Below are positions 34,091-59,261 of a DNA stretch of 64,000 bases, piece by piece. The notes below the pieces were generated by a model, which did no database searches, was not told the origin of the DNA, and was given only the letters and a program-made list of their open reading frames with translations. A program made the position numbers and the translations under genes. The stretch comes from a virus, in IMG/VR virus record IMGVR_UViG_3300007345_000001. One strand, written 5' to 3'. Position 1 is the stretch's first letter. Every line of letters starts with the position of its first letter.

Positions 34091-37000
34091 TTATTTAATA
34101 AAGAAGTTATTAAACTGAATGTAGTCATTCCATTTCTTTACCTCATATAAAATAGGTATTACGTCAGACCACTCTTTATTTACTTTTAATTGTCCGGCTC
34201 TTCTACCCCTTGTATAATATACATCTTTGTTGTAGAACCAGTCTTCTGGATCACCTGTAGCTAAATAGACTGCTCCATTTTTAGCATAACTGAATGTAGC
34301 ATCTAATGCTCCACCAAATTCACCTAATGTTCTAGTTGCAGCAAATGGACTTTCAAAAAATTGTAGGACTTGTTGATATCCACCAAGGGATGGTGTAAAT
34401 AGAATCATTTCATCTCTAGCTCTATCTGCTTGATAGCGTGCAATGTTCTTAAGTCTTTTAATTGTATCACCGTCATCATCATCTGCCCACATACCTCTTA
34501 ACAAACCAATGGTCATATAAATCATCATGATAGTTGCAAGTTCACCATTAACTCTATGAATATTATATACTTTATTCATAATACGGTCATCAGCTTGTGA
34601 ACCATCATCTTGGAATCCAAGAGACTCCATGAAACCTTTAATAGAATTTTCTTTACCGGTTAAAACATTAGATGCGTTCTTCAATACATATCTTATAAAC
34701 TGAGCATATGATATGTATCTACCTTCCAACCAACCAAGGTTTTCATCAAAGTATTCTGCTTGCCATCTTGCTCTAATTGCAGGTGCCACCCATTTATGGA
34801 ACTGTGCTAATAATTTACCAAGAGTATAGGTTTGTAAAACCATTCTATCTTCTCTTGCATAGTTACCATGAATCTGTTTATTAACCTCACGGATTTTCAT
34901 ACGCAAGTTATATCTAAAGGTATCATTGTATTCACCTTCTACAGTGTATAGCATGTTGCCCTTCTCATCTCTTTTTATATTGCTTCCTTTAAGTGCTTGT
35001 CTAAACGTAGGAATATTTTTCTTAGGTTTTACTATTGTTGTAAAACCTTCTTTCATATCTAATTCTTGATCTCCATTAAACTCAAAAGCATCATATAGAC
35101 TTAGTATTTCTCCTGTAGTTGGATTTAAAATATATGTATCCATCAGAATAGCCATACCTACTTTAGTCTGTACATTATATTCTGCAGCATCCTGGAAAGA
35201 ATAACCAAATTCTTTAAATCTTTCCCAGTATGATTTTCCTGTTGTGTCCGTTATACCAGCTTGCTCTCGGATATCACCTTTGTTATCCATCATTCTAAAT
35301 AGATCAACAAAAGCTTCATATTTACTTTGTGGCTTATAAGGATCAAATGCAGCACCTGTTCTTACTTTCATAGCACTGTAAGATGCTCTTTGAATTATAT
35401 CAGATATAGCTCTACCATTAAATTCTTTTGTTGCTCTTATATAAGCATTTCTGGAGAAGAACCTTTGTCCCATAACCTCAATACCGTTGTTAAGTCTACC
35501 TAATACATAGTTATTAAAGTTACCAAAGACGTTAAATGCTACATATGATAATGAAGTATAAGATAGTAGTTTATCAACCGCCTTCTCTAACATACCTTTT
35601 GTTACATCTTCTTCATCATAGAATACCATCTCCATGAATTTCTCTGCAGCATTTTGAACATTAGCTCTTTTCTTCATGTATACATCTTGATCTTTCTTGC
35701 CACTTACACTTCTTGCAATTCTTTTAATCTTAGAAGAGTTTTCTTTGTATTGTCTCTTTTCAATAACTGTTTGGAAAGCAATCATTGTATCTTCTACAGC
35801 AGTCATGATTTCATAATTTTCTGCCATAGCACTAAACTTAAGTAGACTTGATACCATATCAAAACTTAACTCTTGTGCTGTAGGTTTAGATCTTATAGCA
35901 GCAATCTTAGATTCAAGCTCTGCAACTTTACTATTGTATGTTTCAGAGTTAGCTCTAGGAGCTTTTGCATATGCTTCTTTTATTTCTTCAAGCTCTTTTT
36001 CTAATTTTTCAATTGCTTCTTCACTTCTAAGATTACCAGTATACATGATTGGAATACTACTAACAATATTTCCATTTTCATCTACATTAACTCTTGTCAG
36101 TCTTGTAGTTTGTTTTGTAAAGTCTTTTACACCTCTTACAGTTCTAGCCCATAGTTGTTGTGCACCCTGTCCGTTTAACTTAATTTCTGAAGCAAGATTA
36201 CCTGCAATTCTTGGAGTTAACCCAAGCATACTATCTGCTACATTCTGTGGTAACTTATCAAGAGATTCTTTAAAGTGTCTCATGTAAGCTAAATAGAATG
36301 TTCTTCTTGCAACAGCTAATTCATCTGTTGCAGAAGCATCCATTATTGCTTTATATTTTTCACTTCTTTGATCTTTACCAGATGCAGTTATATCTCTAAC
36401 TACTCTATATTTTTTTAGTGGGAAGTGTGCAATCTTCTTGATGGTTCTTCCAGTAAATACACCATCTTTGAATATAGGACTATTAATTTCAACCGCATTA
36501 AAGTGTTTTGCATAGAAAGCTTCTTTCTCTGTTTGACTTAAACCAGCCTTATCAACCCACATTCCGTCTTCTCCAGCTGCAATAAAATCTTGATATCTAT
36601 TTCTGATATCATACCACTCTTCTGTGTACTCATGAAACTCTCCACCTGTTGGTTGTTTATCGGCACCTATTGTTTCCGCTCTTAAAAAATCAGAGTATGC
36701 TTTTTTCTTAGCATATAAATCTTTATTGAATTTGATATCTTCTGGTTTAGCTTTACTAATATCATCTATAGGTCTATACTGCAACCAGTCTCCTTGCTCA
36801 TCTGTAAGTTGAGATCTAAGCTCATATAATTTATCAGTGTATTCTTTACCAACACGCTGAACCAATCTACCTGTATGATTACCATCTTCATCAAGTTCAA
36901 TCATATAAGAGAATCTGTCTTTCATTGTTTTCCCTGGTGTGAGTCTAGAAAGTCTAGATCCAAGCATAGCAATATCATCTTCTCTTGCTTTAATTCTATC

Positions 37001-39832: not shown

Positions 39833-39838
39833 TTTATA

Positions 39839-42800
39839 TTATTTAAGATAACACTTCTTAATATGCTCAGTGAATTCTTCTTCATTTGTAAATTTACTAC
39901 TTTCAAAAGACTTTCTAAAGCTTTCTAAGCTGTTAATACTAATGCCAGCATCTTGTAATGCTTCTACATCTACATCCTGTGTTTTAATAATTTCATAAAA
40001 CTCCTGAAGAGGATCAACATCTAAATTTAATTCTAATTGTTCACCTTCTTCTATTTCTTGGATAGGATCTTCTACTTGTTTTTCTTGTTGTATAAATGCT
40101 TCTAACTTAGAAGTTGCATCTTCAATACCTGCTGGTGCTTTTGCATCTGCAATATTAACACCATCAATCTCAATACCTTTTTCTGTTGCTGTTCTATCAC
40201 CTTGGTTAAATGCTTCAAGTTTTGCCAATGTATTCTGATCATAAGCAAAGTCTTCAAGAGCAGCAAAATCATCAACATCCATTGGATCAATACCACCAAA
40301 TGGATCCTCAAACATTTCTCTATTTTCACCTACCTGTAGCTTATCTAAAGTTGGTCTTGAGAAGTTTTCATTATCAAACATAAACCCTATTGCAGATTGC
40401 TTGAAAGAACCTTTAGGTACAAATCTTTCATAAGTTACTTTATCTGCAATCACTCTTCCTGATGTACTATTAATATCAATACTTGTAGTTTCTTTGCCGT
40501 TTACATCTCCAGCTTGAGTAAGTCTATAATATGTAGAACCACCAGTAACAAAATCTTTTATTTGCATAAATCTAGGGAATCCTAGTTTAGGTGCATCACT
40601 ACGCTGCTGTCTTTGAATTACAATAGAAGCTCCTTTATCAATTTTTGTTATTGAGTGCTTGTTTTGTGCTAAAGATTTTTCACTAACCGCAGCTATATTT
40701 CTTGCGTGTGAAGTAGACTCACCATAATTAGATGCAAGTTCATTAGACAATTCAATGAATGACATACCAAACACATCTTCAAAGGATTTATCACCTTTAA
40801 ATGCAGCAAATGCATTCTTTGATGCTTGTAAATATTTTTCTAAACCAAATGGTGTAATAGCATCTAACACAGAACCAAAGTCATATTGAAGACCATCCTT
40901 AATCATAATGTAATGTAAGATGTGCATTGCATCAGCTCTAGTTTCTCTTTCTCCATATAGAGATTGGAATCCATTTTGAATTCTCACTTTTTCATTGTCA
41001 CTGAGCTTACCAAAACTATTAGTGACAATAGTATTCATACCTGTTTTGTTATCGGCAGAATCAAATGGTCTATTATATAAGAAGTAATCAAGGAAGTAAT
41101 TATCTCTATCTTGATACTTAGCTCTTAGATCTGTAATAACTTTATTTATATTAAAGCTAGACTCACCCGGATATATAAATTCATTGCTTAAAGAAGCACC
41201 TATTACAGCTCCAGCTTCTGTCTCAAAGACTTGTTTCATGTAAGCTTTAAGAGTAATGTAAGCTAGAATATCTTTATATATTTTTGTTTTGAGTTTACTT
41301 CCTCTAGCATTTAACTGAGCGTATGTGTAGCTCATTACAGACTCATACATTTCTTTAAACTCTGGAGTTTGAGTTAAGAATATCTGAGGTAAAATAGACT
41401 CAGTAAATTCTTTATTAATTCTCAAATACTCACCTATAAAATGTGATGTAGGTTCATTCATTGGTGTGTTTATACCAAATGCCTTTCTAAGATCCATTGG
41501 CATAGGAGCACCTCTGTATCTCATTTCTTTAAATACATCACCTTTTACATATAAACCAAGAGCATCAATATTTTGCTGACGGTCTCTTAGTGCTGAGAAG
41601 TCTTTACCAAAACCATTGTTTAGTCTAAAGATAGAAATCATTTCATCAGCAAAAGAAACTACAGTATTTACTTTATTCATTAAGTAATATATACCTAACA
41701 ACTCAGCTTCTGATGCTTCTCCAGCAACCATAGCTTTTTCAATACTCTTAGTTGTTACCGCCACTGGTTCAATTCCCTTATTAACTAGTTCAGCAATTGC
41801 AAGCTTTAATTCACCAGCGTAAGTGTCTTCACTAATTATTTTTCTTATGCTGTCCGTATTAATAAGCATTGTAGCTGTATGTAATGGCACACCGTATGCT
41901 ACCATTGTTTCAACTGTTTTAATTGCTTTCTTAACATAACCAAGCTTACTTAACAATCTTTCTTTAGCATCATCTGTTGCTGCAGAAATCAAGTTAGATA
42001 TAATGTATTGAGATCTTCTAAGTTCTTTTAGTCCTTCTTCATTATCTACAAGCTTGTTGTATGGCTTTCCATTAATGTTAAATGCACCAAATTCTTTTCT
42101 AAGAGATACACCTTGTTCTTTCAAGAAGTTAAAGATTACATTAGGTGGTACAACAGCACCAATCAAATTTGCATTTTCTTTTACATTCTTGTGTGTAAAG
42201 TATTGACCAATTAAGTTATCAATAGAAATACCTTCTTCTAGCGTTAGAGCTTTTAAGAATGGGAATTGTTCACTTAATGTATTCCATTCTTCTTTGAGTG
42301 CTTCAACATCCGCAGGTTGATATGAAATAGGAACTCCAGTCTCTGATTCAGTAAGTTTTGTATTCCCTTGCAATGCAAAGTTCATATCCAAAATTCTGTT
42401 AATCATAGGAGCTCTATAAGGTTCTAGACCAGAATCTTTAACATACTTATTATACTCTGCTAATGTTTTAGGAAGATTTAATACATACAGAGCATGTATT
42501 GCATCCTCTGAGTAACCTAGATTTTCTAACTCTATTTCTTCACTTTTTTCAAATGATTTATCTATAGATACTAGACCACCTTGATCATACTTTAAAGCTG
42601 CATCATATAAGTATGAGCCTTTCTTGGCAACTTTCTTATTAGTGTAGTTTACATAGTCCTCAAAACCTTCTTGACCAGTTCTTGAACCATACTCAATAAA
42701 CTTACCTTCTTTAACATACCACTCTTTGATTGCAGTGTATACTTTATCAATATCAAAGTCAGCACCTGAAATCTCAATAAGTTCTTCTGGGAATACACCA

Positions 42801-45800
42801 GTAGAACCATTGTACACAGGATCAAAGTCTACAAGACGTACAGCCATTGCAGAATGCTTATCTTGTGAAGGAATACGTACAGCAAACATCTTAGCAATAA
42901 CATCTGGAATAGGAACATTTTTGTTCTCAATTAAATCCATTACTTCTTTATAGTGCGCTGGTATAATAGCCTCAGCATATCTAACATTTGTTTTAACCCA
43001 AGTACTAGGGTCTTCAGTAACCTTATCATACTCTGGTAAGTTAATTCTTAACCTATCTATTACAGTAACAGATTGACCAGGGTTATTAGCTAAAGCATCT
43101 CTAAGCTCTTGCATACCCTCTTCTGTTCTTATATCAATGGTTACGGATTGACCAGACTTATCAAAGTTCTTTCTTCTTATAACTTCTTGCTTATCTATAT
43201 TACCCTCAGCATCTAAAGAGTATACTTTTCTAATAACACCTTTACCAAAGTCAGACTTAAGTGCAAGTGACATACCTGGTGTTTTTTGTGCAAGAACTTT
43301 CTTACTAAAGTATGCTAAGAAGAATTGCTCAAACTTAGGAATTGTAAGCGTATTGTTTAATTCATATTTAGCCTGACCATTTTCATCAGCAAAGAACTCA
43401 ATCATATTACTACCTGCAGCAGAAGCTTTAAGATTGGCTTGTGCAGTTCTAATAAACGTAGCTAAGTTTGGTTCAATGCTCCCTGATCTCTCTAGTTCAT
43501 TTACAATGTTACCATCAATGTGTGGTAATAGATCAAATATCAAGTTTCTTTTTTGTGCATAGTCAAATCTTACACCAGCAGCTACAAGTCTATGATACTC
43601 TTCTCTCACATCATTCATGCTTAGGTCTTCCCCAGCTATTCTAACTTTAAAGTCTTCTCCTTGATATTGTTCAGATGTAATTAAAGACTTAATCTGAGTT
43701 GGTATAGTTATCTCAAGTTTGTTAGATGGATTGATCATTTGTCTACCAAAATCTCTTGCATTTAAAAGAGTAACTTCATCTTGAGTAATTACATTTCTAG
43801 AACCAGATAATGTTTCAACAGGTAATATATTTTGCTTCAACATTTTTACTGCACTTGTTGGAGCCACAATAGCAACCTTACCTTGATTTTCTGCTTCAAA
43901 AGCTTCCATGTTTTCACGCATGTAGTGAAGCTCTTCCATTCCGGGTCTTGGTCTAAGTACACCGTCAACTTCTATAGAAGTTTCTTCTTTAGTTAAAACA
44001 ACAGTAGACATCTTTAAGAAAGTCTGACCATCTCCATATACATACTTCTTAGAATTCAGATAAGCATTTGCTGGTTGATATTTACCAAACCAATCTTCAG
44101 AAGTAATTTCTTCACCTCTCTCAATCTTATCTAACATTTCTGCAAACTCCTCATTTAATTGACCAAGACCATATGCAAAGTATCTTGCCCCTTTTGCAGT
44201 AACATATGTCTGAGCATCTGCTTTATCACCTTTTCTGTTACCAGGTACTGCACCATTTGTATAACGCTGTTCAAATGCAGGATCTGTTATAGTCATCAAA
44301 GCAATTGATTCATCTCCTAATGTATGCTCAATACCTACCTCTTCTTCTGGTATTACATCAAATGCTACACTATCATGTGCTGCATTCTGCATTTTAGCAC
44401 GCTTAATTGGATCAACAACAGCATCTTTAAATAGTCTTGCCTCTTCACCAAGAATTAATTCATTGATAGCAAGAGTATTCATCCAGTTGTTTAAGAAAAT
44501 TTGCTTTAGATTTTGCTCTACATTATTTCTAACTAAGTTTAATTCAGCCATTGCTTTCTCAGTAGAATCTGTTTGTGCAAAGTTTCCTTGAATTAAACTT
44601 GAAACATTAATACCACTGGCTTTAACTAAATTAACAAAGTCTTGTGCTGTAGCTTCAAGAACTTGTCCAACTTCTTTAGCAATATCATCTCTGCTTATAT
44701 CTTTCCATTGAACACCTTTTTTAGCTTTTGCAATTAAATCAGCTTTAGTTTCTAGTGAGATTAAGTTATCTGCTTTAAAGAATTTAAAACCATTACCCTG
44801 ATCTGTGTCATTGTAATTTTTAATTGCACCTAAACCAGCTTCAAAGTTATCTCTAATAATATTGTACTCTTTTTCTATGATGTCAGTAAATACATCTATA
44901 GTACTCTCTGTTATCTTACCATCTTGTATTGTAGTGTTAACCGGCAATGATATCATATCATTAGTATTTGCAGACTCTAGTATTCTAATAAGAACAGGAG
45001 CTGTAGCAGCAGATTGACCTTCTGCTTCAATAATATTATTTTTACCACTCTTAGTGTTATAATCAGCAACGTATAGGTTGATTAATACTCTAATGAAGTC
45101 AACAGATTTAAAGTCTCCATAAGTTTGACCCATGGACGGTGTGTAATCTTCTAAAGTATTGTCCTCTTCATTAGTCTTTATTTTACCAGCATTTAAACCA
45201 GCAACTCTGATAATACCAAGTTGGTTATCTTTAGACATCTGTCTAAAAATTGGATTATTAAGTAATGAGTTTAGCTCAAATTGCTCAGATAAATCTGATA
45301 TAGTATCAGCCTCATTTAACTCATTTATTCTTTTAAGATGATATGTTTGATTTTGATGTGCATATACTAAGTTACCATTAGGATCTTCAAACACAGTATT
45401 ACCAACACTCTCATCAAACAAAGCATTACCAAGAGCAATAGACTTTAATCTACTACTCATACCAGCACCTTGATCATCAATAAATAAATTCTGAGGTTTT
45501 GGAATATTAGTCTTCTTCTTACCATTAACAATAATCTCCTCAGCACTTAGCATATTAACTAAGATGTTTGAGTCTTCAGATGTCATCAATCTTTTATCTG
45601 ATCCAAGTTGAACTAATTGTTCTTGATATTTAGTTCTAACACCACTCAAAGATGAAGCAATGCTTATCTCTAAATACAAAGGACTTAACTTAATACCAAG
45701 TTTATCAAAGATCTCCTTAGATAATCTATTGGATTCACTTGACAAAAGTTTATTAGTTATAGTCTTCTTGTTTAAAAGCTTATCTAAAGCATTAACTACA

Positions 45801-48800
45801 GAGATTGCTTCATTAAGTTTTTGTCTATTTGTTCTAAACAACTCAAACTTATCATTAAAACCTTTCTTCCAGTAATCAATTTGACTATTAGCTGCATCTC
45901 TATTTGATGCTGAGAAGATTGCAACATTACTTGCATTATCTTCTTGCTCAAAATGGAAAATATAATCTACTCTTGAGTTTGTAAATGTTGTTACAAATTC
46001 ATTAAAGAGTTTAGATTTTTTAATTTTCTTTGGTAGTTCATTACTCTCCATTAATGTTTCAGCATCAATGCCGGTTCTTCTAAAGAACTCATCTACAACT
46101 GCACCTGAATGCTCATTTCTACGTGAGAAAATATACATTGCTTTTAGTATGTCAGCTGTATTTGTCTTATTCATTGCAGCTAACATCAAACCATTGTAGA
46201 CATCAATGTGATCAACGGGAACCTTAATCTTTTGACCGTCTAATAACTCTACGTTACCAAACATATCTTTGGAGTCTATTGCAACACTAGCAATAAACAT
46301 TCTAATATTTTTACTTGCTGATGCATACCCACCAAATTGGTTAGCATCTTTATTGTAGTCACCAACACGTCTTGGACCAAACTCATCTTCAAGTTGGTCT
46401 ACTTCATCTTCCTGCTCCTCTATCTTAATGTTTACAATATCTAGGTGTTGTTCTACAGCATCTGCAACCGCTTCACCCTCATTCATTATAAGAGCATCAT
46501 ATATGTTTTCTAGTTTATCAAAATCTTTTTCTGATAAACTATTATATTTCTCTTGTTCTGGATTATATAATTCTCCGTACTTATCTATGATTGTTCCAAG
46601 AAGATCTTTATCATTAAGTTCTCCATATTTAGTATCTTGTCTTCTTTCTACATAAGTATTACCAATCATTCTAATAAGAAGATTAGCCGTAGAAGGATCT
46701 AAGTATTTTGCTGAAGTCATCTTATCACCAGAAATAACTTCATAAGGAATAATCTTAAAGGTATCTACAATAACATCATTCTGTAATCCTCTTGTATAGA
46801 TGTTATCTTGTATAGCTGCATTCTTAAACTTACGTGAATCAATTGCTTCAAAAAGATTTGTAAGTTCATTACCTCTATAACCTTTTAATACAGATCTAAT
46901 CCACTGAAGAAGTCTGTTAAAGAATGACTTGATTGCAGAATTAGTTTTAGTATCTCTAGGATTAGTTTTGAACTTCTCAAACTCATCCGCCATGTATTCT
47001 TCTAAGTACTCATTCTCTAGATCTTTAGAAGACATAGCTCTATACTTAGGATGCAAGTTTTTGAATCTACTTAACTCATTTAAGTAAGCCTCTCTTGTTT
47101 TAAATTTCTTTCTTACTTCATCTTTTGCAAGTCTTCTTAATTTAGCTTGCTCCTCATCTGTAAGTAGTAATCTATAAACAGCGTGAAATGCTTCATGGTA
47201 TCTGTATGAATTACCCACACCTGTGTATATAGTACCTTCTATATCAAGATTACCAGCAAGACGTTTTAAATACATTGTAAACTGACCCACTTGGATACCA
47301 CGTTCAGTAAGTCTTGTATGTAATTCATCAAGATCTCTTACCTGAATAAACTCTGGTAAGTTTTCTTTTGCCCATACAAGGAAGCTTTCTAATGTATACT
47401 CTTCTCCAAAAGACTCTGTAGGATCTAATACTTTAAATGCATTAAGATCATTACGTTTCTTTTCTAATGCTCTAAGTTTATTTAGAGCTGCTTGATATGA
47501 CTCAGACTCTCTCTTAAGAACTCTTCTGTTCTTCTTAGTCTTAGCCCACTCAGCTTCAATAAGAGCCTTTTCTTTTTCTAACTCTTGCTCAGCTTCTTCA
47601 ATTTGTTTATCTAATGTAGACTCTTCTGTTGGAGTAGAGCTCTGCATACTGGCCATTGCTATAAGAGCTTCTATATCTTCTCTGCTCTTAAGAACCTCTG
47701 CTTCTCTATCAGTAAGGCTATCTCTACCTTCACTTACAACCTTGGCTGCAATACCTCTTGTTATATCAGATGATATATCTTGGAAGTCATTCTTTTTGAA
47801 TTCTTCATACAATGCATCATCCATTGTTTGAAGATCTGTATTTTCTTTTAGATCTTCAACTCTTTTTCTTTCTTCTAATATTTTATTAATCTCAGCTGTT
47901 TTAGCATTAAAGATTGCAATATCTTTTTCATCACTTAATTGATCACCCTTTTGAATTAAATCAGCAATTCTTTCTAAAGTTTCTTGTGATACGTTTCCTG
48001 TATTAACAAATTCAGCATACTCATCAGAAGTAGTATCTTCTACAGAATTGTTTACTATCTTTTCTGCACTGCTTAAATCAGCACTTGTTGTCATGTAAAC
48101 CTTTTGTCCAAATCTTACACGTCTATCAAGATCTGTTTTTGTTTTACCTACAATCTCATCAATAGCAGCATCAATTGGGAATACTTGCAGCAATGACTCT
48201 TCCGTAAAGTTGAGCTTATAAGGACTGCTTTCATTAAATTGTTTTACTGCAGGATTATTACTTAATTTAGTAAATAAAGAAGCTAAGGTAGCTGGATCTT
48301 TAGCATACTCATCTAACTGCTGAGGTGTAATCTTAACCTGTGATATAAATGCAGTAGGTGCACTCTTTCCAACTTTAATGCGTAATACAATGTTTCCTTT
48401 TAGATCAACTTTTAAATCTAAGAAAGCAGGAGAAAGATTAGGATTGATTGGAATATAAAACTTAGCATTAAAGCTATCATTCCAAGCATATAAATCTTTT
48501 TTCTCTACTTTACCATCTTTAACTTCTTGAGCTTTTTCTATAAGTTCTTTGTAAAGAGTAACTCTTTCTTCTTGTGAATATGGTGCTTGTTTTAATTGAG
48601 CTAAGGTAATAGCACCATTTGGTGATTTAATAATAGCAACATATCTACCTAGAGTCCTTGCTTCATTAAACATATTAGACTGACCACCAGATACACTTTG
48701 TGCTTTTAACTGAGCTTCTACACCATTAATAAACTCAGCATCATCTTCTAGATTTGTAACATATGAAAGACCCAAACCTCCACCTTTTTGTTTGGTGTTA

Positions 48801-51800
48801 ATCATAATGATCATATTACCATCAAACGTGTTATGATCAAGTTCTTCTAAAGAAACAGGTTCTTTACCTTGCTCAAACTTACCATTAGTAAGAACAATGT
48901 CAAAGTCAGTAGCTTCTCTAAACTCAGCCATCTTAAAGGCTTTGTTATTGCTGTCTTTCATTAACTCATCAACCTTACCAATAAAGTAAGCTTGTTGAGC
49001 TGCTGCATTTTTAAGATCAGCAGCACTAACGCCTTCAGGTGTTATATATCTCTCAATCTTGCTATCTTCAATAGCTGAGATATTTATTTCTTTACCTTTA
49101 ACCCCAGTAAAAGAATACTGGTCATTGGCAATAAAACCAATACTACCTCCAAAATCTTCTGGATATGCATAGATACTATCTTCTAAAGCTTGTTGTACTT
49201 TGTTAGCAGCATCTTGCTCCAATACAATTTCAATATGATATTTATCTCCATTATCATTTACAAAAGCATTTTCAGGAGTTATACCAATCTGTAATTTAAT
49301 AGGCTCTCTTCTGTCATTTCTAATAATAACAATAGTGGCTTTTGCTAAGTCTTCTTCAGATAATACACTTAAAGCTCTAGCCAATCTCTCATTTGGGTTA
49401 ATACCTTTTTCAGTATCTCCTTCAAATCTTCTACCATATAAGGCAGACATATCTTTAGGATCTAGCTTACTCATATTCTCAGTAAACGTAACACCTTTAA
49501 AAGACTGCTCTACTTTACTATATAGATCAGAAAAACTAGTCTCTTCTGCAAAGAATGATGCAGCTTCTCTTTCTTGACCTTGAAGTTCTCTGTCTTCAAA
49601 ACGTAATAGTTTAAGCTTAGCCCCTTTATCTGTAGACACAGATGTTCCAAGTACAATAAACTTATTACCCTGAGCATCTTCTACTTCATCTAAATATTTT
49701 AATTCTATACCATCAAATTCATAAGTAGAATCTTCTGGTCTGTTTTGTAAAAGCTTTTTGTAAGATTCAACAGCTTTATCTAATGATATCTCATTTGCTT
49801 TGCTAACACCTGCTCTATCCAGTTCTTGTTGTGATAGCTGCACACCATTATTATCTGTAAGGGTATACATAATCTGTTGATCTTCTTCAGATGTAGGATC
49901 ACCAACTCTTCTTTCTAAGATATTAATACCCGGACCTTTTTGAATCCATCTTTTGTTAGGATCATCTTCTACTACAGAATCAAGACCAACACCAGTTGTG
50001 TCCATCTCAACATCACTAAATCTAATACCACCAAGCATCAATGCTCTTGATACAAGAGGATCTTCTTTTTGTGACATCAACCATGATTGGAATCCATCAT
50101 CTTCTTTATATGCTTTCTCAATCTGTTCTTCAGTAAGATTAGATTTAGTTAAAGAAACATACCACATCTTCTTTAACTTCTCTAATGCTTTTACAGCACC
50201 TCTACCTTCTCTACTGTTAACCCATTCATCTAGTGGTAAGTATTCCTCACCTTTACTAAACTGATCTAACTTGTATTTGGCATAGAGGTTTAATAAGATT
50301 TCTTGGGCAAATGGAGACTGATCTTCTACCAAAAGGTTAGCATCTGGTGCTTCATCCATTTCAGCTTGTAAGTCATCAGGTATTTCTTGTGAATCTATTT
50401 CATCAAAAGCTTCTTCTGGCGTAGCTGTGTCTTTTTTAGCTTCTGCCTTTTCTTGTTTTGCTTTTGCTAAATCCTCTTTTGTTTGAGTGTAATTATTCAA
50501 GATAGCTTGAATCTTACTCCATAACTCAGGATCAGCTTGTGGAAATACTTTACCGTTTTCTGTATAAAAGTCTTTTAACTTTGATACATCTTTGGTTTTA
50601 AGGAATTCTAATACTTGTGCAGCATCTGGGTAAACACCAAGTTCTTTAAACTGTGATACAACCTGATTAGCTTCTGCATCTTCAACAGCTCCTTTTACAT
50701 TCTTTTCAAACTGAGCTTTGTTGTTATCAAATACTACTTTAAGATGATCACCAATTCTATCAATAATATCTGTTACCTTATCTGGATTACTAAATAGAGA
50801 AACCGTTCTGCTATATAACTGAGCTCTCTTGTCTAAGTTATTATGATCAACAAGAGCATAAAGTACTTCATCAATTAAATCTTCTTTAACAAAACCACCT
50901 TTGTTCTCTGCTAACTTTTCTAAGTATTGAACTAAGGGTTTTCTTAAAGCTTCAAGTTTTTCTCTATCATATACACCAGACTCTTCATCATATATATTCT
51001 CAAGAGCAGCTCTATATCCGGCAAGAGCAATTAACTTATCCTCTTTTTCTTTTATAAGCTTCTCATCTTTTTCTTCAGCTTGATTTAATACTTGAACCTC
51101 TTGCAATAACAGTTTGTTTTCTGCATCAATAGAATCCGTTGATAAAAGAACAGTAAGATCATCAGTATCTAACTGATCACCCATTACACCAGAAGTCTTA
51201 AGATAATTATTAAGCTTATCTCTACGGTTTAATGCTTGTGCAAATGAATCACCTGCAAACAAGTATAACAATCTAGCATGTTCTACAGCTAAATGTTTTT
51301 GTCTTGTTTGATTATACTCTCTACTACCTTTCTTATATTGTTTAAAGTTGTAAGGATTTACAATCTTATCATATGATGCTTGATATTCTTTAGTAAACTT
51401 CTTAAGGTCATCAATAGATCTTTGAATATATTCTTGACCTTTGCCTGGTTCAATGATATCCTCAAACTGAGGAAACATTTCTTTGAGCTCCTCTTTGCTT
51501 AGTTTACTTATATCTTCAAGCTGTTCTAAATATAAACTTTCAGTACCAGAAGACATCATAAAGTATCTATTCATAAATGCAGAAGCATCTTTTGCATCAT
51601 AAAATCCCATAGGATCTGCTTCAAATAGATTTCTTTCTGCATCTTCTTGAGTATCTTTCTGAAAGAATAAGTGTAGTCTTTTGTCATTAAAATAATCAAA
51701 AGGATTATCTTGAATATCATTACCAACTTCATTTACTCTTGCCTCAAACTTTTCCATGTTTTCCTGATACTTCTTATAAGCTTCAGGATTTCTTTTTCTC

Positions 51801-53575
51801 TGATATACTTCAGGAATAGTTTCAAACAAAACTTTTTGTGGTCCTTGTACTAAACCACCCATTAAGAAACCAGACATAAATACTTCTGCTCCTTGTGCAG
51901 ACATCTGACTCTTTAGTCCACTTCTAATGGACTCATACATAAGATCTGTTTGATTAGCTTGAGGATTATCTAATAACTTAGTATAGTAATTTACCACACC
52001 TACAGCAACACCTTCTTGGTAAACTTCTTGCACACCTTCACCTAAAGAAGCAGCAGAATATCTCAATAAGTTATGAGCTGTTCCTTTACCAATACCTATA
52101 GCTCTAAGTTTTTTGAATCCGAAAAGTTTACCTAATACTGATTTAGCACCAACATTCTTAAATAAATTTCTAGCTGCTTTACCTGTTGCTGCATCTCTAA
52201 CTGGTTTACTTTTTATAAAGTTCTTTGCAAATCCGGGTAAACTCTTATTAAAGATTCTTCTTAATGTGGGAGAAAAACCAGATAGTGCTGTACCAAGAAC
52301 AAGTTTATTTGTTGCATAAATAAATGGTGCATTTAATAAAATTGTAGTTGCAGCAGCATCTAACGCAGCTTTATTAATTTCTTCTAGCTCTTCAATTGTA
52401 GCTAACTGACCATTATTTTTAGCAAGATGTTCAGCGTATACGTCAGAATAAACTAAACCACCTTCCATTTTAGCTTCACTCATGGCTAAGTTAATAGCTC
52501 TAAGATCTCTATAGAAAGCACCATATGTAGCACCTTTAGCTAATACTTCTAAACCTTGAATTGTATTTTCACCTGTTTTAAAAGCTTTTAATGTTGCTCT
52601 TAACTCTGGTGTAAAAATATCTCCAGCAAATCTTACCGTACCTATACCGGCAGCTCTAGCCGCAGTCCAAAAATCTTTTGCTTTATCAGCAGTTCTTAGT
52701 CCATCAAGAATTGATGAAGTAGTTTTAAGTGCTCTTCTAACGTCAAACATATTACCCAGAGCTTTCATACCTCTACCAAAATTGTAAAGAGTTCGTCCTA
52801 GAAAACCAACACCAGTTCCTCCGCCAGTAGCTGCAGTAGCTGCTGCTAGTGCAAGTTCTTCAGCAGCAATACTACCAATAATACCAACCGTATAACCAGA
52901 CTGAAGAAAAAGATTAGTTCCAAATCCTGATAAACCACCTCTTGTACTTGAACCTAATCTATTTGCCTCTGCAAACTCCATTGCAGATTGATAATCACCA
53001 GTTTTAAAATAACTATCATCACTAAACAAATCTGCAATAGCTCTATATCCAGACATAAAACCAGTACCTACACTATCTGCCCAAGGACCCCAAGCTCTTT
53101 GAAAATCTGACCATCCTGATGTATTAGCATTATAATATGCTTCATTATCTCTAGCAGGATTCCACCCTAATTTATTAAAGTCAGGATGTAATGCTATTCT
53201 ATCATAGCCGGATGATCTAGAACCAGATATGATTGGATCTTGTATTTGAATATTTTCTGATTGTCCTGATAGAAAAGGATTAGGACTATTAAATACTTTT
53301 GAAAAACCCTCAAAAGAACTAAAATTTTTAGTTGAGTTTTGAGGCATATTGTTTGGAACATTTGCTAAATACAAAGACTTAGTAATATCATTGACAACAG
53401 GTGCAATGGCATTCAATTCTTTCATGTACTCATCCATACCTTGAACGCTTTCTACGTCAAAGTCTTTATCAAACATTTCTTCTACCGGTGTAAACTCAAA
53501 ACCGTTTGGATTGTAAAATGGTTCAGTTTGTATGTTTGACTCTGGAGTGTTGGCTACTTTTTTGTCAATGCTCAT
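39839..53575 (-). CDS. Giant polyprotein (4578 aa) containing a beta-prime-like DPBB RNA polymerase catalytic motif; putative virion-packaged RNAP
   Basis: FAVRIPSQDKHSAMAVRLVDF...EISGADFDIDKVY (D3606/D3608/D3610, nt 42746-42760) parallels bacterial beta-prime NRAPTLHRLGIQAFEP...NADFDGDQM. It also has HEAFH at aa 2127-2131 and Gly-rich hydrophobic segments near aa 214-260. Confidence 0.65.
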   Translation of the reverse strand: MSIDKKVANTPESNIQTEPFYNPNGFEFTPVEEMFDKDFDVESVQGMDEYMKELNAIAPVVNDITKSLYLANVPNNMPQNSTKNFSSFEGFSKVFNSPNPFLSGQSENIQIQDPIISGSRSSGYDRIALHPDFNKLGWNPARDNEAYYNANTSGWSDFQRAWGPWADSVGTGFMSGYRAIADLFSDDSYFKTGDYQSAMEFAEANRLGSSTRGGLSGFGTNLFLQSGYTVGIIGSIAAEELALAAATAATGGGTGVGFLGRTLYNFGRGMKALGNMFDVRRALKTTSSILDGLRTADKAKDFWTAARAAGIGTVRFAGDIFTPELRATLKAFKTGENTIQGLEVLAKGATYGAFYRDLRAINLAMSEAKMEGGLVYSDVYAEHLAKNNGQLATIEELEEINKAALDAAATTILLNAPFIYATNKLVLGTALSGFSPTLRRIFNKSLPGFAKNFIKSKPVRDAATGKAARNLFKNVGAKSVLGKLFGFKKLRAIGIGKGTAHNLLRYSAASLGEGVQEVYQEGVAVGVVNYYTKLLDNPQANQTDLMYESIRSGLKSQMSAQGAEVFMSGFLMGGLVQGPQKVLFETIPEVYQRKRNPEAYKKYQENMEKFEARVNEVGNDIQDNPFDYFNDKRLHLFFQKDTQEDAERNLFEADPMGFYDAKDASAFMNRYFMMSSGTESLYLEQLEDISKLSKEELKEMFPQFEDIIEPGKGQEYIQRSIDDLKKFTKEYQASYDKIVNPYNFKQYKKGSREYNQTRQKHLAVEHARLLYLFAGDSFAQALNRRDKLNNYLKTSGVMGDQLDTDDLTVLLSTDSIDAENKLLLQEVQVLNQAEEKDEKLIKEKEDKLIALAGYRAALENIYDEESGVYDREKLEALRKPLVQYLEKLAENKGGFVKEDLIDEVLYALVDHNNLDKRAQLYSRTVSLFSNPDKVTDIIDRIGDHLKVVFDNNKAQFEKNVKGAVEDAEANQVVSQFKELGVYPDAAQVLEFLKTKDVSKLKDFYTENGKVFPQADPELWSKIQAILNNYTQTKEDLAKAKQEKAEAKKDTATPEEAFDEIDSQEIPDDLQAEMDEAPDANLLVEDQSPFAQEILLNLYAKYKLDQFSKGEEYLPLDEWVNSREGRGAVKALEKLKKMWYVSLTKSNLTEEQIEKAYKEDDGFQSWLMSQKEDPLVSRALMLGGIRFSDVEMDTTGVGLDSVVEDDPNKRWIQKGPGINILERRVGDPTSEEDQQIMYTLTDNNGVQLSQQELDRAGVSKANEISLDKAVESYKKLLQNRPEDSTYEFDGIELKYLDEVEDAQGNKFIVLGTSVSTDKGAKLKLLRFEDRELQGQEREAASFFAEETSFSDLYSKVEQSFKGVTFTENMSKLDPKDMSALYGRRFEGDTEKGINPNERLARALSVLSEEDLAKATIVIIRNDRREPIKLQIGITPENAFVNDNGDKYHIEIVLEQDAANKVQQALEDSIYAYPEDFGGSIGFIANDQYSFTGVKGKEINISAIEDSKIERYITPEGVSAADLKNAAAQQAYFIGKVDELMKDSNNKAFKMAEFREATDFDIVLTNGKFEQGKEPVSLEELDHNTFDGNMIIMINTKQKGGGLGLSYVTNLEDDAEFINGVEAQLKAQSVSGGQSNMFNEARTLGRYVAIIKSPNGAITLAQLKQAPYSQEERVTLYKELIEKAQEVKDGKVEKKDLYAWNDSFNAKFYIPINPNLSPAFLDLKVDLKGNIVLRIKVGKSAPTAFISQVKITPQQLDEYAKDPATLASLFTKLSNNPAVKQFNESSPYKLNFTEESLLQVFPIDAAIDEIVGKTKTDLDRRVRFGQKVYMTTSADLSSAEKIVNNSVEDTTSDEYAEFVNTGNVSQETLERIADLIQKGDQLSDEKDIAIFNAKTAEINKILEERKRVEDLKENTDLQTMDDALYEEFKKNDFQDISSDITRGIAAKVVSEGRDSLTDREAEVLKSREDIEALIAMASMQSSTPTEESTLDKQIEEAEQELEKEKALIEAEWAKTKKNRRVLKRESESYQAALNKLRALEKKRNDLNAFKVLDPTESFGEEYTLESFLVWAKENLPEFIQVRDLDELHTRLTERGIQVGQFTMYLKRLAGNLDIEGTIYTGVGNSYRYHEAFHAVYRLLLTDEEQAKLRRLAKDEVRKKFKTREAYLNELSRFKNLHPKYRAMSSKDLENEYLEEYMADEFEKFKTNPRDTKTNSAIKSFFNRLLQWIRSVLKGYRGNELTNLFEAIDSRKFKNAAIQDNIYTRGLQNDVIVDTFKIIPYEVISGDKMTSAKYLDPSTANLLIRMIGNTYVERRQDTKYGELNDKDLLGTIIDKYGELYNPEQEKYNSLSEKDFDKLENIYDALIMNEGEAVADAVEQHLDIVNIKIEEQEDEVDQLEDEFGPRRVGDYNKDANQFGGYASASKNIRMFIASVAIDSKDMFGNVELLDGQKIKVPVDHIDVYNGLMLAAMNKTNTADILKAMYIFSRRNEHSGAVVDEFFRRTGIDAETLMESNELPKKIKKSKLFNEFVTTFTNSRVDYIFHFEQEDNASNVAIFSASNRDAANSQIDYWKKGFNDKFELFRTNRQKLNEAISVVNALDKLLNKKTITNKLLSSESNRLSKEIFDKLGIKLSPLYLEISIASSLSGVRTKYQEQLVQLGSDKRLMTSEDSNILVNMLSAEEIIVNGKKKTNIPKPQNLFIDDQGAGMSSRLKSIALGNALFDESVGNTVFEDPNGNLVYAHQNQTYHLKRINELNEADTISDLSEQFELNSLLNNPIFRQMSKDNQLGIIRVAGLNAGKIKTNEEDNTLEDYTPSMGQTYGDFKSVDFIRVLINLYVADYNTKSGKNNIIEAEGQSAATAPVLIRILESANTNDMISLPVNTTIQDGKITESTIDVFTDIIEKEYNIIRDNFEAGLGAIKNYNDTDQGNGFKFFKADNLISLETKADLIAKAKKGVQWKDISRDDIAKEVGQVLEATAQDFVNLVKASGINVSSLIQGNFAQTDSTEKAMAELNLVRNNVEQNLKQIFLNNWMNTLAINELILGEEARLFKDAVVDPIKRAKMQNAAHDSVAFDVIPEEEVGIEHTLGDESIALMTITDPAFEQRYTNGAVPGNRKGDKADAQTYVTAKGARYFAYGLGQLNEEFAEMLDKIERGEEITSEDWFGKYQPANAYLNSKKYVYGDGQTFLKMSTVVLTKEETSIEVDGVLRPRPGMEELHYMRENMEAFEAENQGKVAIVAPTSAVKMLKQNILPVETLSGSRNVITQDEVTLLNARDFGRQMINPSNKLEITIPTQIKSLITSEQYQGEDFKVRIAGEDLSMNDVREEYHRLVAAGVRFDYAQKRNLIFDLLPHIDGNIVNELERSGSIEPNLATFIRTAQANLKASAAGSNMIEFFADENGQAKYELNNTLTIPKFEQFFLAYFSKKVLAQKTPGMSLALKSDFGKGVIRKVYSLDAEGNIDKQEVIRRKNFDKSGQSVTIDIRTEEGMQELRDALANNPGQSVTVIDRLRINLPEYDKVTEDPSTWVKTNVRYAEAIIPAHYKEVMDLIENKNVPIPDVIAKMFAVRIPSQDKHSAMAVRLVDFDPVYNGSTGVFPEELIEISGADFDIDKVYTAIKEWYVKEGKFIEYGSRTGQEGFEDYVNYTNKKVAKKGSYLYDAALKYDQGGLVSIDKSFEKSEEIELENLGYSEDAIHALYVLNLPKTLAEYNKYVKDSGLEPYRAPMINRILDMNFALQGNTKLTESETGVPISYQPADVEALKEEWNTLSEQFPFLKALTLEEGISIDNLIGQYFTHKNVKENANLIGAVVPPNVIFNFLKEQGVSLRKEFGAFNINGKPYNKLVDNEEGLKELRRSQYIISNLISAATDDAKERLLSKLGYVKKAIKTVETMVAYGVPLHTATMLINTDSIRKIISEDTYAGELKLAIAELVNKGIEPVAVTTKSIEKAMVAGEASEAELLGIYYLMNKVNTVVSFADEMISIFRLNNGFGKDFSALRDRQQNIDALGLYVKGDVFKEMRYRGAPMPMDLRKAFGINTPMNEPTSHFIGEYLRINKEFTESILPQIFLTQTPEFKEMYESVMSYTYAQLNARGSKLKTKIYKDILAYITLKAYMKQVFETEAGAVIGASLSNEFIYPGESSFNINKVITDLRAKYQDRDNYFLDYFLYNRPFDSADNKTGMNTIVTNSFGKLSDNEKVRIQNGFQSLYGERETRADAMHILHYIMIKDGLQYDFGSVLDAITPFGLEKYLQASKNAFAAFKGDKSFEDVFGMSFIELSNELASNYGESTSHARNIAAVSEKSLAQNKHSITKIDKGASIVIQRQQRSDAPKLGFPRFMQIKDFVTGGSTYYRLTQAGDVNGKETTSIDINSTSGRVIADKVTYERFVPKGSFKQSAIGFMFDNENFSRPTLDKLQVGENREMFEDPFGGIDPMDVDDFAALEDFAYDQNTLAKLEAFNQGDRTATEKGIEIDGVNIADAKAPAGIEDATSKLEAFIQQEKQVEDPIQEIEEGEQLELNLDVDPLQEFYEIIKTQDVDVEALQDAGISINSLESFRKSFESSKFTNEEEFTEHIKKCYLK

Positions 53576-56500
53576 TTTTTAATACCGTTTTTTTTCTTCC
53601 AAGCTTTCTGCTGCTCTATATTCTGTTTATATATTTCCTCCATAGTTCTTCTATAGTGTGCAGCATATCTATCAATATTTGCTTTAGTGACGGGCTGCCC
53701 TTCATCATTTACAATTATAGTAGGACTCTGTATACCAGCGGTTTCAAATAAACCTGTTTCAGGATTTACTTTCATCATTTCCATAGCTACGTAATATAAA
53801 CCACCATCATTAAATATTTTAAAAGAACCTGCTTTATTTGATAAAAGATTATAATTATAAACCTTTTCATCACTCATATTTATTTGAAAATCTATAGCAG
53901 AGAAATTATAATTACCAGCTGCTCTTGGATTCATGTCTTGATCCATAGGTACAAGCATTGTTATTTCAGAATATTTAACAATATCACTTGTGCTAATTTC
54001 TTTAGTAATTTTATTTTGTTTATCAGGAGTATCTGCAAATTGTTGTATCTGATCTCTGGTTAATTTTAAGGTGTAAGAAGCATATGATTCACCATCAACA
54101 GTCTTAACGGGATTATATGTAATATCATAAAGTAAATTTTTTGAACTTGCTTTATCAGGTGTTAGCATTGCTCTTTTTGTATCTAACAAAGTTTTCTCAA
54201 AAATGTAAGCTGCAGTTGGATCATTTTCTGCTTCTACTTCTTCAGCAGTAGAAGCTCCTGTAGCTACAATAATTTTGTTAGCTGTTTCATTATGTTGTTT
54301 AACTAAGTTCATCAACATACTAACCGCATCAGGATTATTTAAATTTTCTACATTAAATGTTTCTTGATAACCTCTATAAGTATACAACTCAGATGCATTC
54401 ATTTGATCTAAAGGAACACCTCTAAAATATGCATCAGCAGAAAAAGGTTGTGTTACTCTTGCTCCACCAAGAGATGTATTAACGGCTTCATTTAAAGAGC
54501 CACCTAATGCAGCATATTGATCATCATATAGTTTATCTGCCTCTCGTCTTGCAGCATCTTCATCAAAATATGTAACATATGTATAGTTATGTGTAAAGTC
54601 ACCACCAGCACCCTTACGCATGCTTGTACTTGCATCATATCTTCTTTCTCTTACCATGTAAGCATCATCATCTATGCCTCTGATTGCTTTATTTCTAACT
54701 CTACTTACATAAATATCTTGAAACTCTGTTTTACTTAATAATCTAGGTTTAAATTCTGATCCACCAGCTCCAGAAACCGCATCAACTTGTCCTAAAAGAA
54801 CAGCTTTAGGATCTGCTGTAATAATTGAAGGAACACCATTATTAAGTTGACTATTAATTTCTTTACCCTTATCTGTTGTCCTTATTCTTTTCATATTATC
54901 AAAAAGAACTTGACTATAAGTTTCTTCATAATCAAGAGACATGCTTTCACGCGCTCTAATATTTTCTTGAGCACCTGTAAGAGCTACATATGCTGGAAGC
55001 TCACTTGCTTTAGGATTAGTTTCTGGTAATGTTTCTAGTTTTAGTTTAGAATCTTTATATAATGTTGAAATAGCAGGACTATTAACAAGAGTACCACTTT
55101 CATCTTTTTCTAATAACTTTGATCTAATTTGATCATAACTCCCAGTATAGTCTGTACCATCTGCAAGCTTTATAGTCATTCTATTAAGATCAACATCTTG
55201 GATACTCTTACCTGTCTTAGATAATTTATCCATCTCTGTGATAAAAGCAACTTGCTCTTCCAGAGTTTTATTTGCAAAGTTTGCAGCATCTTCTGCATTT
55301 CTTGCTATTGGATCTTCTGCTTCCTCAAACTGAGTTGACTGAGCATCTAATGGAGCATTTCCTCCCCAAATCATATCAACTAAATTAGCAATAGCACCTT
55401 CTTTAGTTGATGGATCTATCTTAGCTTTATGCTCAATCTCTTTCATTTTATTAAGATGACGTTGATTGATTTCTGCCATATCATATATGTGCTCAATCTC
55501 CATCTTCTTATATGGGTTAGCTTCTAGAGTTCTTTCATAATCACGCATACTATATGCTTGAGCAGCACCAAGTATATCACTACTAATATTGTAACTCATA
55601 AGAAGATTATATGCCTTTGATAAAAGATCATCATCCAAAGATGTATTATCTAATCTTTGCATATCCTCTTCATTTCTTTGTAATGCGCCATTTAACTTAT
55701 CATAGTGTTCTAGTGCATCCATCATTGCTTTAGCTTCATCACTGCCTGGTACTATACCTTCTTCTTTCTCATAAGCCTCCCAGTTTTCTTTTGTATCTAA
55801 AGCATCTTCAAACTGACGTTTAAGAATTTCATTTGCTGTAGCATTTCTTTGTGCTAAGTCTTGTAGTGTTTGACGTGCCCAAGCATTCTGACCTTCTGAT
55901 ATATTTGCATATTGTCCTGATTCTACACCAGCTTCAGCAAAACTTCTTGATTGTACGTAACCACTAGCTCTATATGCATCAATCACTCTTGGATCTTCCA
56001 AAAGGGTTTTCTGTAAATAGTTATATGCACCAGGCACTTGCTGCTGGCCATTCTTTTCAGTAATAATCCAAGCCCCATCATCAGAAGGAATATCAATCTT
56101 TACATCCTCAAAACCCGCTTCTTCAAGAAGCTTTGTTGACATGGCCATAAGATCTACATTCTCTACATAAGTGGGTAGTGCTTGTTTTAAAGCTCCATCT
56201 CTATCAGCAGTTTTAAAGTCTTCCATTTGATAATTTAAATACTGCATACCTGTACCCCAGTATTTCTTTCTTTGATCTAAATTATCTGAGTCTTTATAAA
56301 CCTGTGCCAATTGTACATTCTTCTTAAACTGTTTTGTGTAAACAAGATCTTTTACAATAAGATCATCTTCATAGAATGGTTTAAATAGACCTTGTGCAGC
56401 ATCAACATTTTGACGCAAGGAAAGGTCCATACCAGAAATTTGTTGAATTTTTGGAGCAAGTTGGTTTGCATACTGATCTCTCATCTCAGTGGTATCTTGT

Positions 56501-58897: not shown

Positions 58898-58907
58898 CTT
58901 GCCTGTA

Positions 58908-59261
58908 TCAGAAAATACAAATGACTGTTCTGGTAAGTACAGGTACACCACCTTGGCTATGTCTTGGACCAGTAATATTATATAGACCAAATTGGCCATC
59001 ATTATTTAAATCAGTTAGGACGGTCTCTCCACCCTCTGCTTCTATATTAGCAACTTCTTTTGGTACAGATGACAATGAGTATCTTACGCTTTTATCACTG
59101 CTATTATTAAATTGATCATTGCCTAAATTATATGGAGATGTAATAAGGCCATAGTTAAACTGATCACCAGTCATCATACCACCCTGCTGCATCTTCTTTA
59201 CAACTTTACCATCTCTGACTTCAAAGCCATCAGGTAATTTTTTTAATCTAATCTTTGCCAT
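58908..59261 (-). CDS. Small virion-module protein (117 aa) with x-G-G motifs
   Basis: It contains KMQQGGM, EAEGGE and HSQGGV. It is tightly spaced with its neighbours. Confidence 0.55.
   Translation of the reverse strand: MAKIRLKKLPDGFEVRDGKVVKKMQQGGMMTGDQFNYGLITSPYNLGNDQFNNSSDKSVRYSLSSVPKEVANIEAEGGETVLTDLNNDGQFGLYNITGPRHSQGGVPVLTRTVICIF

Follow-up and report, generated by a model that had tools for sequence, protein, structure and literature searches.

The 64,000-nucleotide stretch of viral DNA analysed here (IMG/VR record IMGVR_UViG_3300007345_000001, hereafter the window) carries on its minus strand, at positions 39839..53575, an open reading frame (ORF) with an ATG start and a product of 4578 residues, which we call the giant. 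It is the second of six large ORFs that follow one another in the same orientation, with products of 1913, 4578, 1032, 757, 617 and 940 residues. An earlier note, made from the letters of the DNA, had described this run as a block of giant virion-type genes and had proposed that the 4578-residue product carries an RNA polymerase (RNAP) of the single-chain, two-barrel type known from virions of crAss-like phages. The block is indeed present, with matches to virion cargo proteins, and the length of the ORF and the positions given for its motifs turned out to be exact, these being MFAVRIPSQ from residue 3563, DFDID at residues 3606-3610 (nucleotides 42746-42760), PGNRKGDK from residue 3111, with G3116-K3118 at nucleotides 44222-44230, and HEAFH at residue 2127. 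The identical 4578-residue product was called on 22 contigs, most of them close to 117 kb long, in several samples of ENA and JGI, and because these come from several independent metagenomes the ORF is considered real and not an assembly artefact. From the ORF call and from BLAST and hidden Markov model (HMM) comparisons, the whole giant reads as a putative fusion of a gp47-like cargo/zincin part with a virion RNA polymerase like gp66 of phage phi14:2 and gp50 of crAss001.

The RNA polymerase half

The homology of the C-terminal half was analyzed first at the level of sequence. With residues 2900-4300 as the query, tblastn matched 77 records of crAss-like phages at genes annotated as 'RNAP catalytic subunit', with E values from 1e-6 to 1e-10 and the matches centred on residues ~3529-3722 of the giant, and no record in the phage collection reached 40% identity to the clade to which the giant belongs. 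When 1.84 billion cluster representatives were searched with a profile, 1330 relatives were obtained at E <= 1e-3, and a family HMM was built from 68 of them. This HMM matched phi14:2 gp66 with 65.5 and 30 bits over gp66 residues 678-1038 and 1317-1837, in such a way that the DFDID motif, the bridge helix and the trigger loop were all spanned, and it also matched crAss001 gp50 (94.6 bits) and p-crAssphage gp44 (57.6 bits). Almost every locus related to crAss001 gp50 was more than 94% identical, and these loci added no diversity.

Residues 3090-3960 were then modelled with AlphaFold from an alignment of 55 sequences (predicted local distance difference test, pLDDT, 86.3; predicted template-modelling score, pTM, 0.88). 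When the model was compared with the PDB by Foldseek, the best match was the structure of phi14:2 gp66 (6VR4), with an E value of 1.1e-21 and a template-modelling (TM) score of 0.61 over 966 columns, followed by QDE-1 (E 3.4e-4, TM score ~0.19) and P23-45 gp96 (E 2e-3). The largest subunits of cellular and poxviral enzymes (beta-prime, Rpo147, RPA190) were found with E values of 0.02-0.1, which are non-significant alone, and against BFVD crAss-like phage proteins ranked first. The tblastn matches, the family HMM and the structural ranking, with 6VR4 ahead of QDE-1, thus agree with the proposed single-chain two-barrel polymerase of the crAss-like virion type.

The landmarks published for gp66 are a connector at residues 1095-1238, DFDID at 1361-1365, a bridge helix at ~1529-1559 and a trigger loop at ~1598-1636 (bioRxiv 10.1101/2020.03.07.982082). 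In the giant, the predicted beta-like (N-terminal) double-psi barrel covers residues ~3090-3273 (43757..44308, minus strand), between model strands E2-7 and E180-182, and is aligned by hmmalign to gp66 915-1094. It is followed by a connector, mostly helical in the model, at residues ~3274-3430 (43286..43756, minus strand), which aligns to gp66 1091-1249, residues 3274-3438 falling on the published connector, and includes PSNK3286...Q3294-I-K3296...E3302. The beta-prime-like catalytic double-psi barrel is placed by Foldseek and by model strands E342-351 to E536-539 at residues ~3431-3629 (42689..43285, minus strand). Within it, the strand R3567-I-P-S-Q-D3572 (42860..42877, minus strand) is, by conservation and alignment, the likely counterpart of the cellular NRAPTLH and aligns with YRIPNQG of gp66 and YRIPTEG of p-crAssphage gp44, and the catalytic metal-binding motif D3606-F-D3608-I-D3610 (42746..42760, minus strand) aligns with DFDID 1361-1365 of gp66. 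Further downstream, a bridge-helix candidate was located at residues 3788-3820 (42116..42214, minus strand), where the model has a long helix (H699-731) aligned to gp66 ~1529-1559, and a candidate for the trigger-loop region at residues ~3855-3893 (ISNLISAATDDAKERL...; 41897..42013, minus strand), corresponding to helices H766-804 and to gp66 ~1598-1636; a DNAK/DDAK motif is common to this region in both proteins.

The conservation of these residues was determined among the aligned homologs. R3567, P3569, D3606, D3608 and D3610 are identical in 68/68 of them, so that the catalytic motif is no chance match, and within the metal-binding motif the Phe is found in 63/68 and the Ile at position 4 in 58/68. 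The beta-prime-type catalytic barrel proposed in the earlier note is therefore upheld, both by these residues and by the match of the model to 6VR4, and so is the conservation of the DFDID loop, with all three aspartates kept in every homolog. The fate of the second barrel was mixed. The GDK tripeptide had been put forward as the beta-like barrel, equivalent to the cellular GDKxxxRHGNKG, and the domain was correct, as GDKADAQTYVTAKG falls within this barrel and aligns with gp66 ...NQTDAQAWITPK, at residues ~931-950, N-terminal of the connector. The residues were not, since G3116 (14/57), D3117 (30/57) and K3118 (18/58) are poorly conserved, and the equivalence with the cellular motif is unsupported. 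Conserved near the tripeptide are D3120 (58/58), Q3122, T3126, K3128 and R3131, and two other lysines of the barrel, K3188 (60/60) and K3244 (64/64), are invariant. K3286 and K3296, in PSNK...QIK, were also tried as the beta-like lysines and were rejected, as they map to the connector and not to the barrel.

Compared with phi14:2 gp66, the giant is likewise a single-chain two-barrel protein with an identical DFDID and a RIP[SN]Q strand, and the two are collinear over the first-barrel motifs DAQxxxTxK and LK[MY]S, the connector, the bridge helix and the trigger-loop region. Both also have a gp67-like part upstream and a gp65-like virion protein downstream, and terminal cysteines. By contrast, gp66 is a separate protein of 2180 residues with DFDID at 1361, whereas the giant has ~2300 extra residues in front and DFDID at 3606, and identity in the structural alignment is only ~14%. 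QDE-1 and the cellular beta/beta-prime subunits share with the giant the two double-psi barrels, the DxDxD on the second one and the bridge helix, but no sequence similarity to them was detectable and most of the giant has no counterpart in them. The motif ADFDID, with Ile in place of the Gly of NADFDGD, sets the giant apart from cellular beta-prime subunits, and the TM score of ~0.19 indicates that it is related to RNA-dependent RNA polymerases (RdRP) of the QDE-1 type in fold class only. No match to Pfam RNA_pol_Rpb1 at E <= 1 and no match to Pfam RdRP was found in the giant, and no structure of YonO, another enzyme named in the earlier note, was among the 50 best PDB matches by Foldseek, no direct comparison with YonO having been made.

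The model shows a two-barrel fold with an intact predicted catalytic constellation, and residues ~2300-4578 very probably constitute a crAss-like virion RNA polymerase of the phi14:2 gp66 / crAss001 gp50 family. Its location in a crAss-type transcription and cargo block was borne out by gp67/gp47-like and gp65/gp49-like flanks, by a CrAss_Ring_1 protein upstream and by synteny with two relatives, loci L001 and L002.

The cargo half and the distribution of the fusion

A BLAST depth profile divided the giant into a conserved zone at residues ~100-900, a variable acidic zone at ~1000-2000, a continuously conserved zone at ~2000-4300 and a variable tail. The first one (50876..53278, minus strand), delimited by BLAST depth, HMM and hydropathy, is rich in Gly and Ala, which make up 29% of residues 201-400, and contains a moderately hydrophobic segment at residues 230-248. 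Asp and Glu reach 20-24% in residues 801-1400 and 1801-2000, so the glycine-rich and acidic stretches of the earlier note are both present. The last ~250 residues (window 39842-40400, residues ~4390-4578) are variable and acidic, save for a final motif F-[IL]-[ED]-x-[IL]-K-x-C-x-x before the stop.

With crAss001 gp47 the family HMM shows collinear matches at gp47 residues 89-988 (45 bits) and 1637-2295 (33 bits), and it also matched phi14:2 gp67, weakly, at residues 268-572 (22 bits); tblastn of residues 1-1450 against the phage collection gave no matches. Inside the continuously conserved zone lies a zincin-type motif, H2127-E-A-F-H2131, followed ~65 residues on by E2192-E2193-Y-x-A-D2197 (46985..47197, minus strand). 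Eleven diverse homologs all share H2127, E2128, H2131 and E2192/E2193/D2197, and HEAFH is present in nearly all listed homologs of at least 4000 residues, ~1500 residues upstream of ADFDID, as well as in crAss001 gp47 and in cr50_1 gp059. No Pfam match was obtained for the region, and the zincin assignment of the HEAFH...EEY module is a putative one, made at the level of motifs. The ~3000 N-terminal residues that the earlier note had left unexplained are in this way largely accounted for by a gp47-type cargo protein with a zincin-like HExxH module, and we regard the correspondence of residues 1-~2300 with crAss001 gp47 as very likely, together with that of the polymerase half.

The resemblance to crAss001 extends to the order of the parts. 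There gp47 and then gp50 are collinear with the giant, HEAFH is at residue 2157 of the 2341 of gp47 compared with 2127 in the giant, gp49 is the match of the 1913-residue neighbour, and the terminal cysteine pattern is found in all of them; the difference is that crAss001 encodes the three proteins in individual genes, and that of gp47 runs opposite to those of gp50 and gp49. In phi14:2, unlike the giant, the HExxH is in the downstream gp65 and not upstream of the polymerase.

The fused form is not rare. Both fused polyproteins and a zincin domain have been mentioned for crAss-like RNAPs (Drobysheva et al., bioRxiv 10.1101/2020.03.07.982082). Among the 150 best homolog representatives, 89 have 4.1-6.2 thousand residues, with the RNAP module at ~2700-4500, and ~60 IMG/VR loci carry the same uninterrupted single ORF. 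In the RefSeq Crassvirales, cr50_1 gp059 (4774 residues) has the same order, with HEAFH (1665) and then DFDID (3154). The size of the giant, which the earlier note had considered out of the ordinary, is therefore matched by known proteins, p-crAssphage gp44 (4070 residues) being another. In the latter it is the other junction, between the RNAP and the gp49-like protein, that is fused, and the same is true of cr8_1 gp93 (4422 residues), cr110_1 gp40 (4417 residues) and Rudgehvirus (4098 residues); in these four phages, unlike the giant, the zincin protein is separate from the RNAP. The fusion architecture is common and already published; what the giant adds to a known family is a new and divergent member. 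The clade of the giant is aquatic or environmental, unlike the annotated fused records of Crassvirales.

Genes for crAss-like RNAPs are also known to be interrupted by introns. In cr108_1 (NC_055878, locus L003) the region 19334-19652, between gp054 (...AKAGSD) and gp053 (LYDIDK...), matched the group I intron family RF00028 with 80 bits, which places the intron inside the catalytic DxDxD motif. Judged by their sequences, these two 'hypothetical proteins' represent one predicted spliced zincin and RNAP gene of ~3750 residues, with the same order as the giant after intron removal. In L001 and L002 the parts are encoded as separate ORFs, split at a position equivalent to giant residues ~2893/2944, with gaps of 167 nucleotides in L001 (9834-10000) and 575 nucleotides in L002 (2932-3506), the latter containing an antisense ORF of 130 residues. 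The downstream part has in both an extra ~220-330 N-terminal residues dissimilar to the giant, and no intron was found with Rfam at the split.

Terminal cysteines and neighbouring genes

Six nucleotides downstream of the giant, and in the same frame, lies the gene of 1913 residues (34091..39832, minus strand), a putative cargo protein whose sole cysteine is C4 (codon 39821-39823, MSKCYNKN). By BLAST it matches crAss001 gp49 at 5e-26, the C-terminal half of p-crAssphage gp44 (residues 3795-4001) at 7.5e-16 and phi14:2 gp65, annotated as 'RNAP-associated protein', at 7e-8. The only cysteine of the giant is C4575 (codon 39851..39853, minus strand), four residues from the C-terminus (...EHIKKCYLK*). 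No cysteine at all was found in the four large upstream ORFs of the cargo/tail block (53572..56670, 56729..59002, 59264..61117 and 61155..63977, minus strand), so that the six ORFs contain 2 cysteines in 9837 residues, compared with 62 in 6582 (0.94%) for the genes on the plus strand of the window. With the latter taken as the background frequency, the chance of zero other cysteines in the 4577 residues of the giant is ~2e-19 for this single protein. Suppression of cysteine has likewise been published for the ejection proteins of N4-like phages, and the depletion may be taken as independent, indirect support for the ejection of the proteins of the block.

The position of the two cysteines is conserved. 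A cysteine was found within the last 8 residues in 86/89 of the giant homologs, and in 63/63 non-redundant IMG/VR loci (394,806 residues) the giant has exactly one cysteine, in its last 8 residues, and the downstream protein of ~1900 residues exactly one, in its first 6. Antisense ORFs were considered as a control for terminal cysteines and rejected, as they are spurious and mutually homologous. The same facing arrangement is seen in other phages where genes are separate. In phi14:2, gp67 ends ...TIC and gp66 starts MAC, and gp66 ends ...QECK and gp65 starts MSC; in crAss001, gp47 ends ...RCNS and gp50 starts MSKRC, and gp50 ends ...ICGANTLYEL and gp49 starts MAKKC. In cr108_1, gp053 ends ...LCK and gp052 starts MANVC; in p-crAssphage, gp45 ends ...SCM and gp44 starts MSC; in cr8_1, gp92 ends ...TCK and gp93 starts MANNC; in cr50_1, gp059 ends ...KECE and gp060 starts MQC; and in Rudgehvirus the upstream protein ends ...YTCS and the downstream one starts MAC. 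A weaker case is that of cr110_1, where gp39 ends ...MYCE and the first cysteine of gp40 is at residue 17. The pattern holds in crAss001 even with gp47 and gp50 encoded on opposite strands. Fused junctions lack the pair.

The junction between the giant and its neighbour has a further peculiarity, as two copies of a nonamer, aagtgttat (K-C-Y), 27 nucleotides apart, flank its stop and start (39810-39860, minus strand). Readthrough or ribosome hopping from the giant into the 1913-residue gene was considered and rejected. Neither frame nor spacing is conserved in relatives, recoding is excluded as the cause of the cysteine pattern because the intergenic gaps vary from -1 to 26 nucleotides, and in crAss001 gp47 and gp50 are on opposite strands.

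The cysteine pattern suggests that C4575 of the giant would be disulfide-bonded to Cys4 of the 1913-residue protein. Extending this to the order, we tentatively propose that the cargo of Crassvirales is chained head to tail, gp47 to RNAP to gp49, either by a peptide bond or by a disulfide between terminal cysteines, with other cysteines purged, and that the chain is threaded N-to-C and unlinked by reduction. Disulfides do occur elsewhere in crAss001 virions. Several facts weigh against such a bond. Capsid assembly takes place in the reducing cytoplasm, the proteins of gut phages have extra internal cysteines and some unpaired terminal ones, among them p-crAssphage gp47 and gp48, with a near-C-terminal cysteine and no obvious partner, and the extra split of L001 and L002 has no pair. 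Such cases would be expected if the terminal cysteines served elsewhere, in anchoring to portal or capsid, in metal binding, as a packaging signal or as a site of lipid or other modification, an explanation that we find possible though doubtful. It does not account for cysteines that come as facing C-end/N-end pairs in the order gp47, gp50, gp49, even on opposite strands, nor for the loss of the pair where the junction is a peptide bond, and no conserved His or second Cys that could form a metal site was found nearby. Because the pairs occur exactly at the unfused junctions, the pattern suggests that physical linkage, and not separation, is selected in the virion. No mention of terminal cysteine pairs was found in the accessible literature, in which the final version of the Drobysheva et al. 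paper is not included, and the rule seems unreported so far.

The remaining genes of the window are in keeping with such a phage. On the opposite, plus strand are the replication genes for DnaB helicase, primase, PolA, exonuclease and ribonucleotide reductase (RNR), and the layout is crAss-like, in that early replication genes and late cargo/tail genes form blocks facing each other. With the same high confidence as for the two halves of the giant, the source is taken to be an uncultured crAss-like (Crassvirales-type) phage of ~117 kb. A tblastn search with PolA gave no lineage signal, its best matches being Vibrio phages; ARAGORN found no tRNA within the window, and nothing in it reached the gathering threshold of Rfam, hence no intron is seen there. 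The ORF of 940 residues (61155-64000, minus strand) is cut by the end of the window, and in the ~117-kb contig the full gene has 1520 residues, the C-terminal part of which matches phrog_3108, of unknown function; further upstream of it in the contig are a gene of 1703 residues and the CrAss_Ring_1 (PF24228) protein. For the ORF at 56729-59263 (minus strand) the metagenome call is of 844 residues, starting directly after the upstream stop, and the mechanical ORF list gives 757 residues, its ATG lying at 59002, which leaves two candidate starts. Just past the cargo block and adjoining the RNR genes, an ORF of 136 residues (33001-33411, plus strand) has a faint Pfam match to thioredoxin, and thioredoxin genes are also annotated near the cargo block in p-crAssphage, cr8_1 and Rudgehvirus. 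The thioredoxin-like ORF is probably tied to RNR, a part in the reduction of ejected cargo being conceivable. In the replication block, an ORF of 387 residues (8338-9501, plus strand) strongly matches an HNH endonuclease family (phrog_1314, E 1.5e-66) and is possibly a mobile element.

Interpretation and significance

Taken together, the giant is in all likelihood a crAss-like phage protein in which two virion cargo proteins, a gp47-type protein and the virion RNA polymerase, are naturally fused. A number of results count against this reading. Searches of the giant against Pfam, PHROGs and PDB sequences matched nothing, and a PDB search with a profile of 6 sequences of the giant gave nothing either. 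The boundaries of the barrels and the equivalences with the cellular beta lysines are estimates from secondary structure and an HMM alignment. For the zincin region, the best PDB match in a profile search was the Pro-Pro endopeptidase 6fpc, with both motifs aligned and a non-significant E value of 0.96; hhalign with the annotated zincin p-crAssphage gp45 recovered three motifs in order at a non-significant probability of 2%, and with phi14:2 gp65 it was not significant. Finally, the packaging, ejection and activity of the giant are predicted from homologs at 14-33% identity.

The first alternative is a true polyprotein, cut into a gp47-like protein and the RNAP before or during packaging, for instance by its own zincin module, so that the fusion would have no role in the virion. 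Drobysheva et al. proposed that fused forms are probably processed into single components (bioRxiv 10.1101/2020.03.07.982082), and the conserved HExxH...E module between the two parts and the variable acidic linkers beside the modules would suit this. We nevertheless consider it unlikely, as no defined cleavage site was found, conservation is unbroken from residue ~2000 to ~4300, across the presumed junction of cargo and RNAP, and the conserved terminal cysteine pairs, placed precisely at the junctions where genes are separate, suggest that linkage has been selected. A much less probable alternative, and a very improbable one, is that the RNAP-like module has degenerated into a non-catalytic relic and the protein is only a structural or ejection cargo, channel-forming or peptidoglycan-digesting. 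The N-terminal part does resemble ejection proteins in composition, and gp66 itself crystallised in a self-inhibited form with a non-canonical conformation of DFDID; but gp66, which has this identical motif, is active as a polymerase, the giant's regions for the bridge helix and trigger loop are conserved and align with those of gp66, and the three aspartates, R3567, P3569, K3188 and K3244 are invariant over more than 60 homologs with 27-76% identity. An artefact, whether from mis-assembly, an overlooked stop or a sequencing error, or a product of recoding, as might be imagined from the separate ORFs of L001 and L002 and from the known introns, such as the one within the cr108_1 DxDxD motif, is refuted for practical purposes by the 22 independent contigs, by the same uninterrupted architecture in the 89/150 best representatives and the ~60 IMG/VR loci, and by the lack of any Rfam intron in the window.

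The reading as a fused cargo protein finds an analogy in N4-like phages (Schitoviridae), in which gp50, or gp71 of DEV, is a giant of ~3400-3500 residues, packaged and ejected as the RNAP for early genes, with cysteine suppressed. Unlike the giant, these enzymes have no terminal cysteine, DEV gp71 being reported as cysteine-free. The fold of the N4-like virion RNAP is that of a T7-like single-subunit polymerase, unrelated to the two-barrel type.

The function of the giant can be proposed by analogy with its closest studied relatives. Phi14:2 gp66 is packaged in the virion, is resistant to rifampicin and transcribes early genes (Drobysheva et al., bioRxiv 10.1101/2020.03.07.982082), and crAss001 virions were found to contain gp47, gp49 and gp50, which were assigned to the cargo zone of the capsid (Bayfield et al. 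2023, PMC10172136). By homology, the giant would be made late, packed into the capsid, partly unfolded and extruded via the tail ahead of the DNA, after which the ejected polymerase would transcribe the early (replication) genes, which run in the opposite orientation, independently of the host polymerase. If, as the cysteine pattern suggests, Cys4575 is joined by a disulfide to Cys4 of the 1913-residue gp49/gp65-like cargo protein, the linked module would leave the virion as one N-to-C thread of ~6500 residues, and reduction in the cytoplasm would free the linked proteins. Such a disulfide would make unfused proteins functionally equal to a fused chain.

These results add one more, very divergent, member to the crAss-like virion RNA polymerases, and indicate that the zincin-fused form is the norm within a large aquatic clade of 1330 cluster representatives, in which most of the best-scoring ones have 4-6 thousand residues. 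Annotation can profit from them, since the giant escapes Pfam and PHROGs. The fusion of zincin and RNAP will not surprise a specialist, and the cysteine pattern may matter more, as it argues that linkage, and not cleavage, is under selection. It offers a concrete, testable hypothesis on how crassviruses order and translocate a cargo of ~0.7 MDa through a narrow tail and, if the cysteine link is true, it would account for the interchangeable fusions at different junctions across families.

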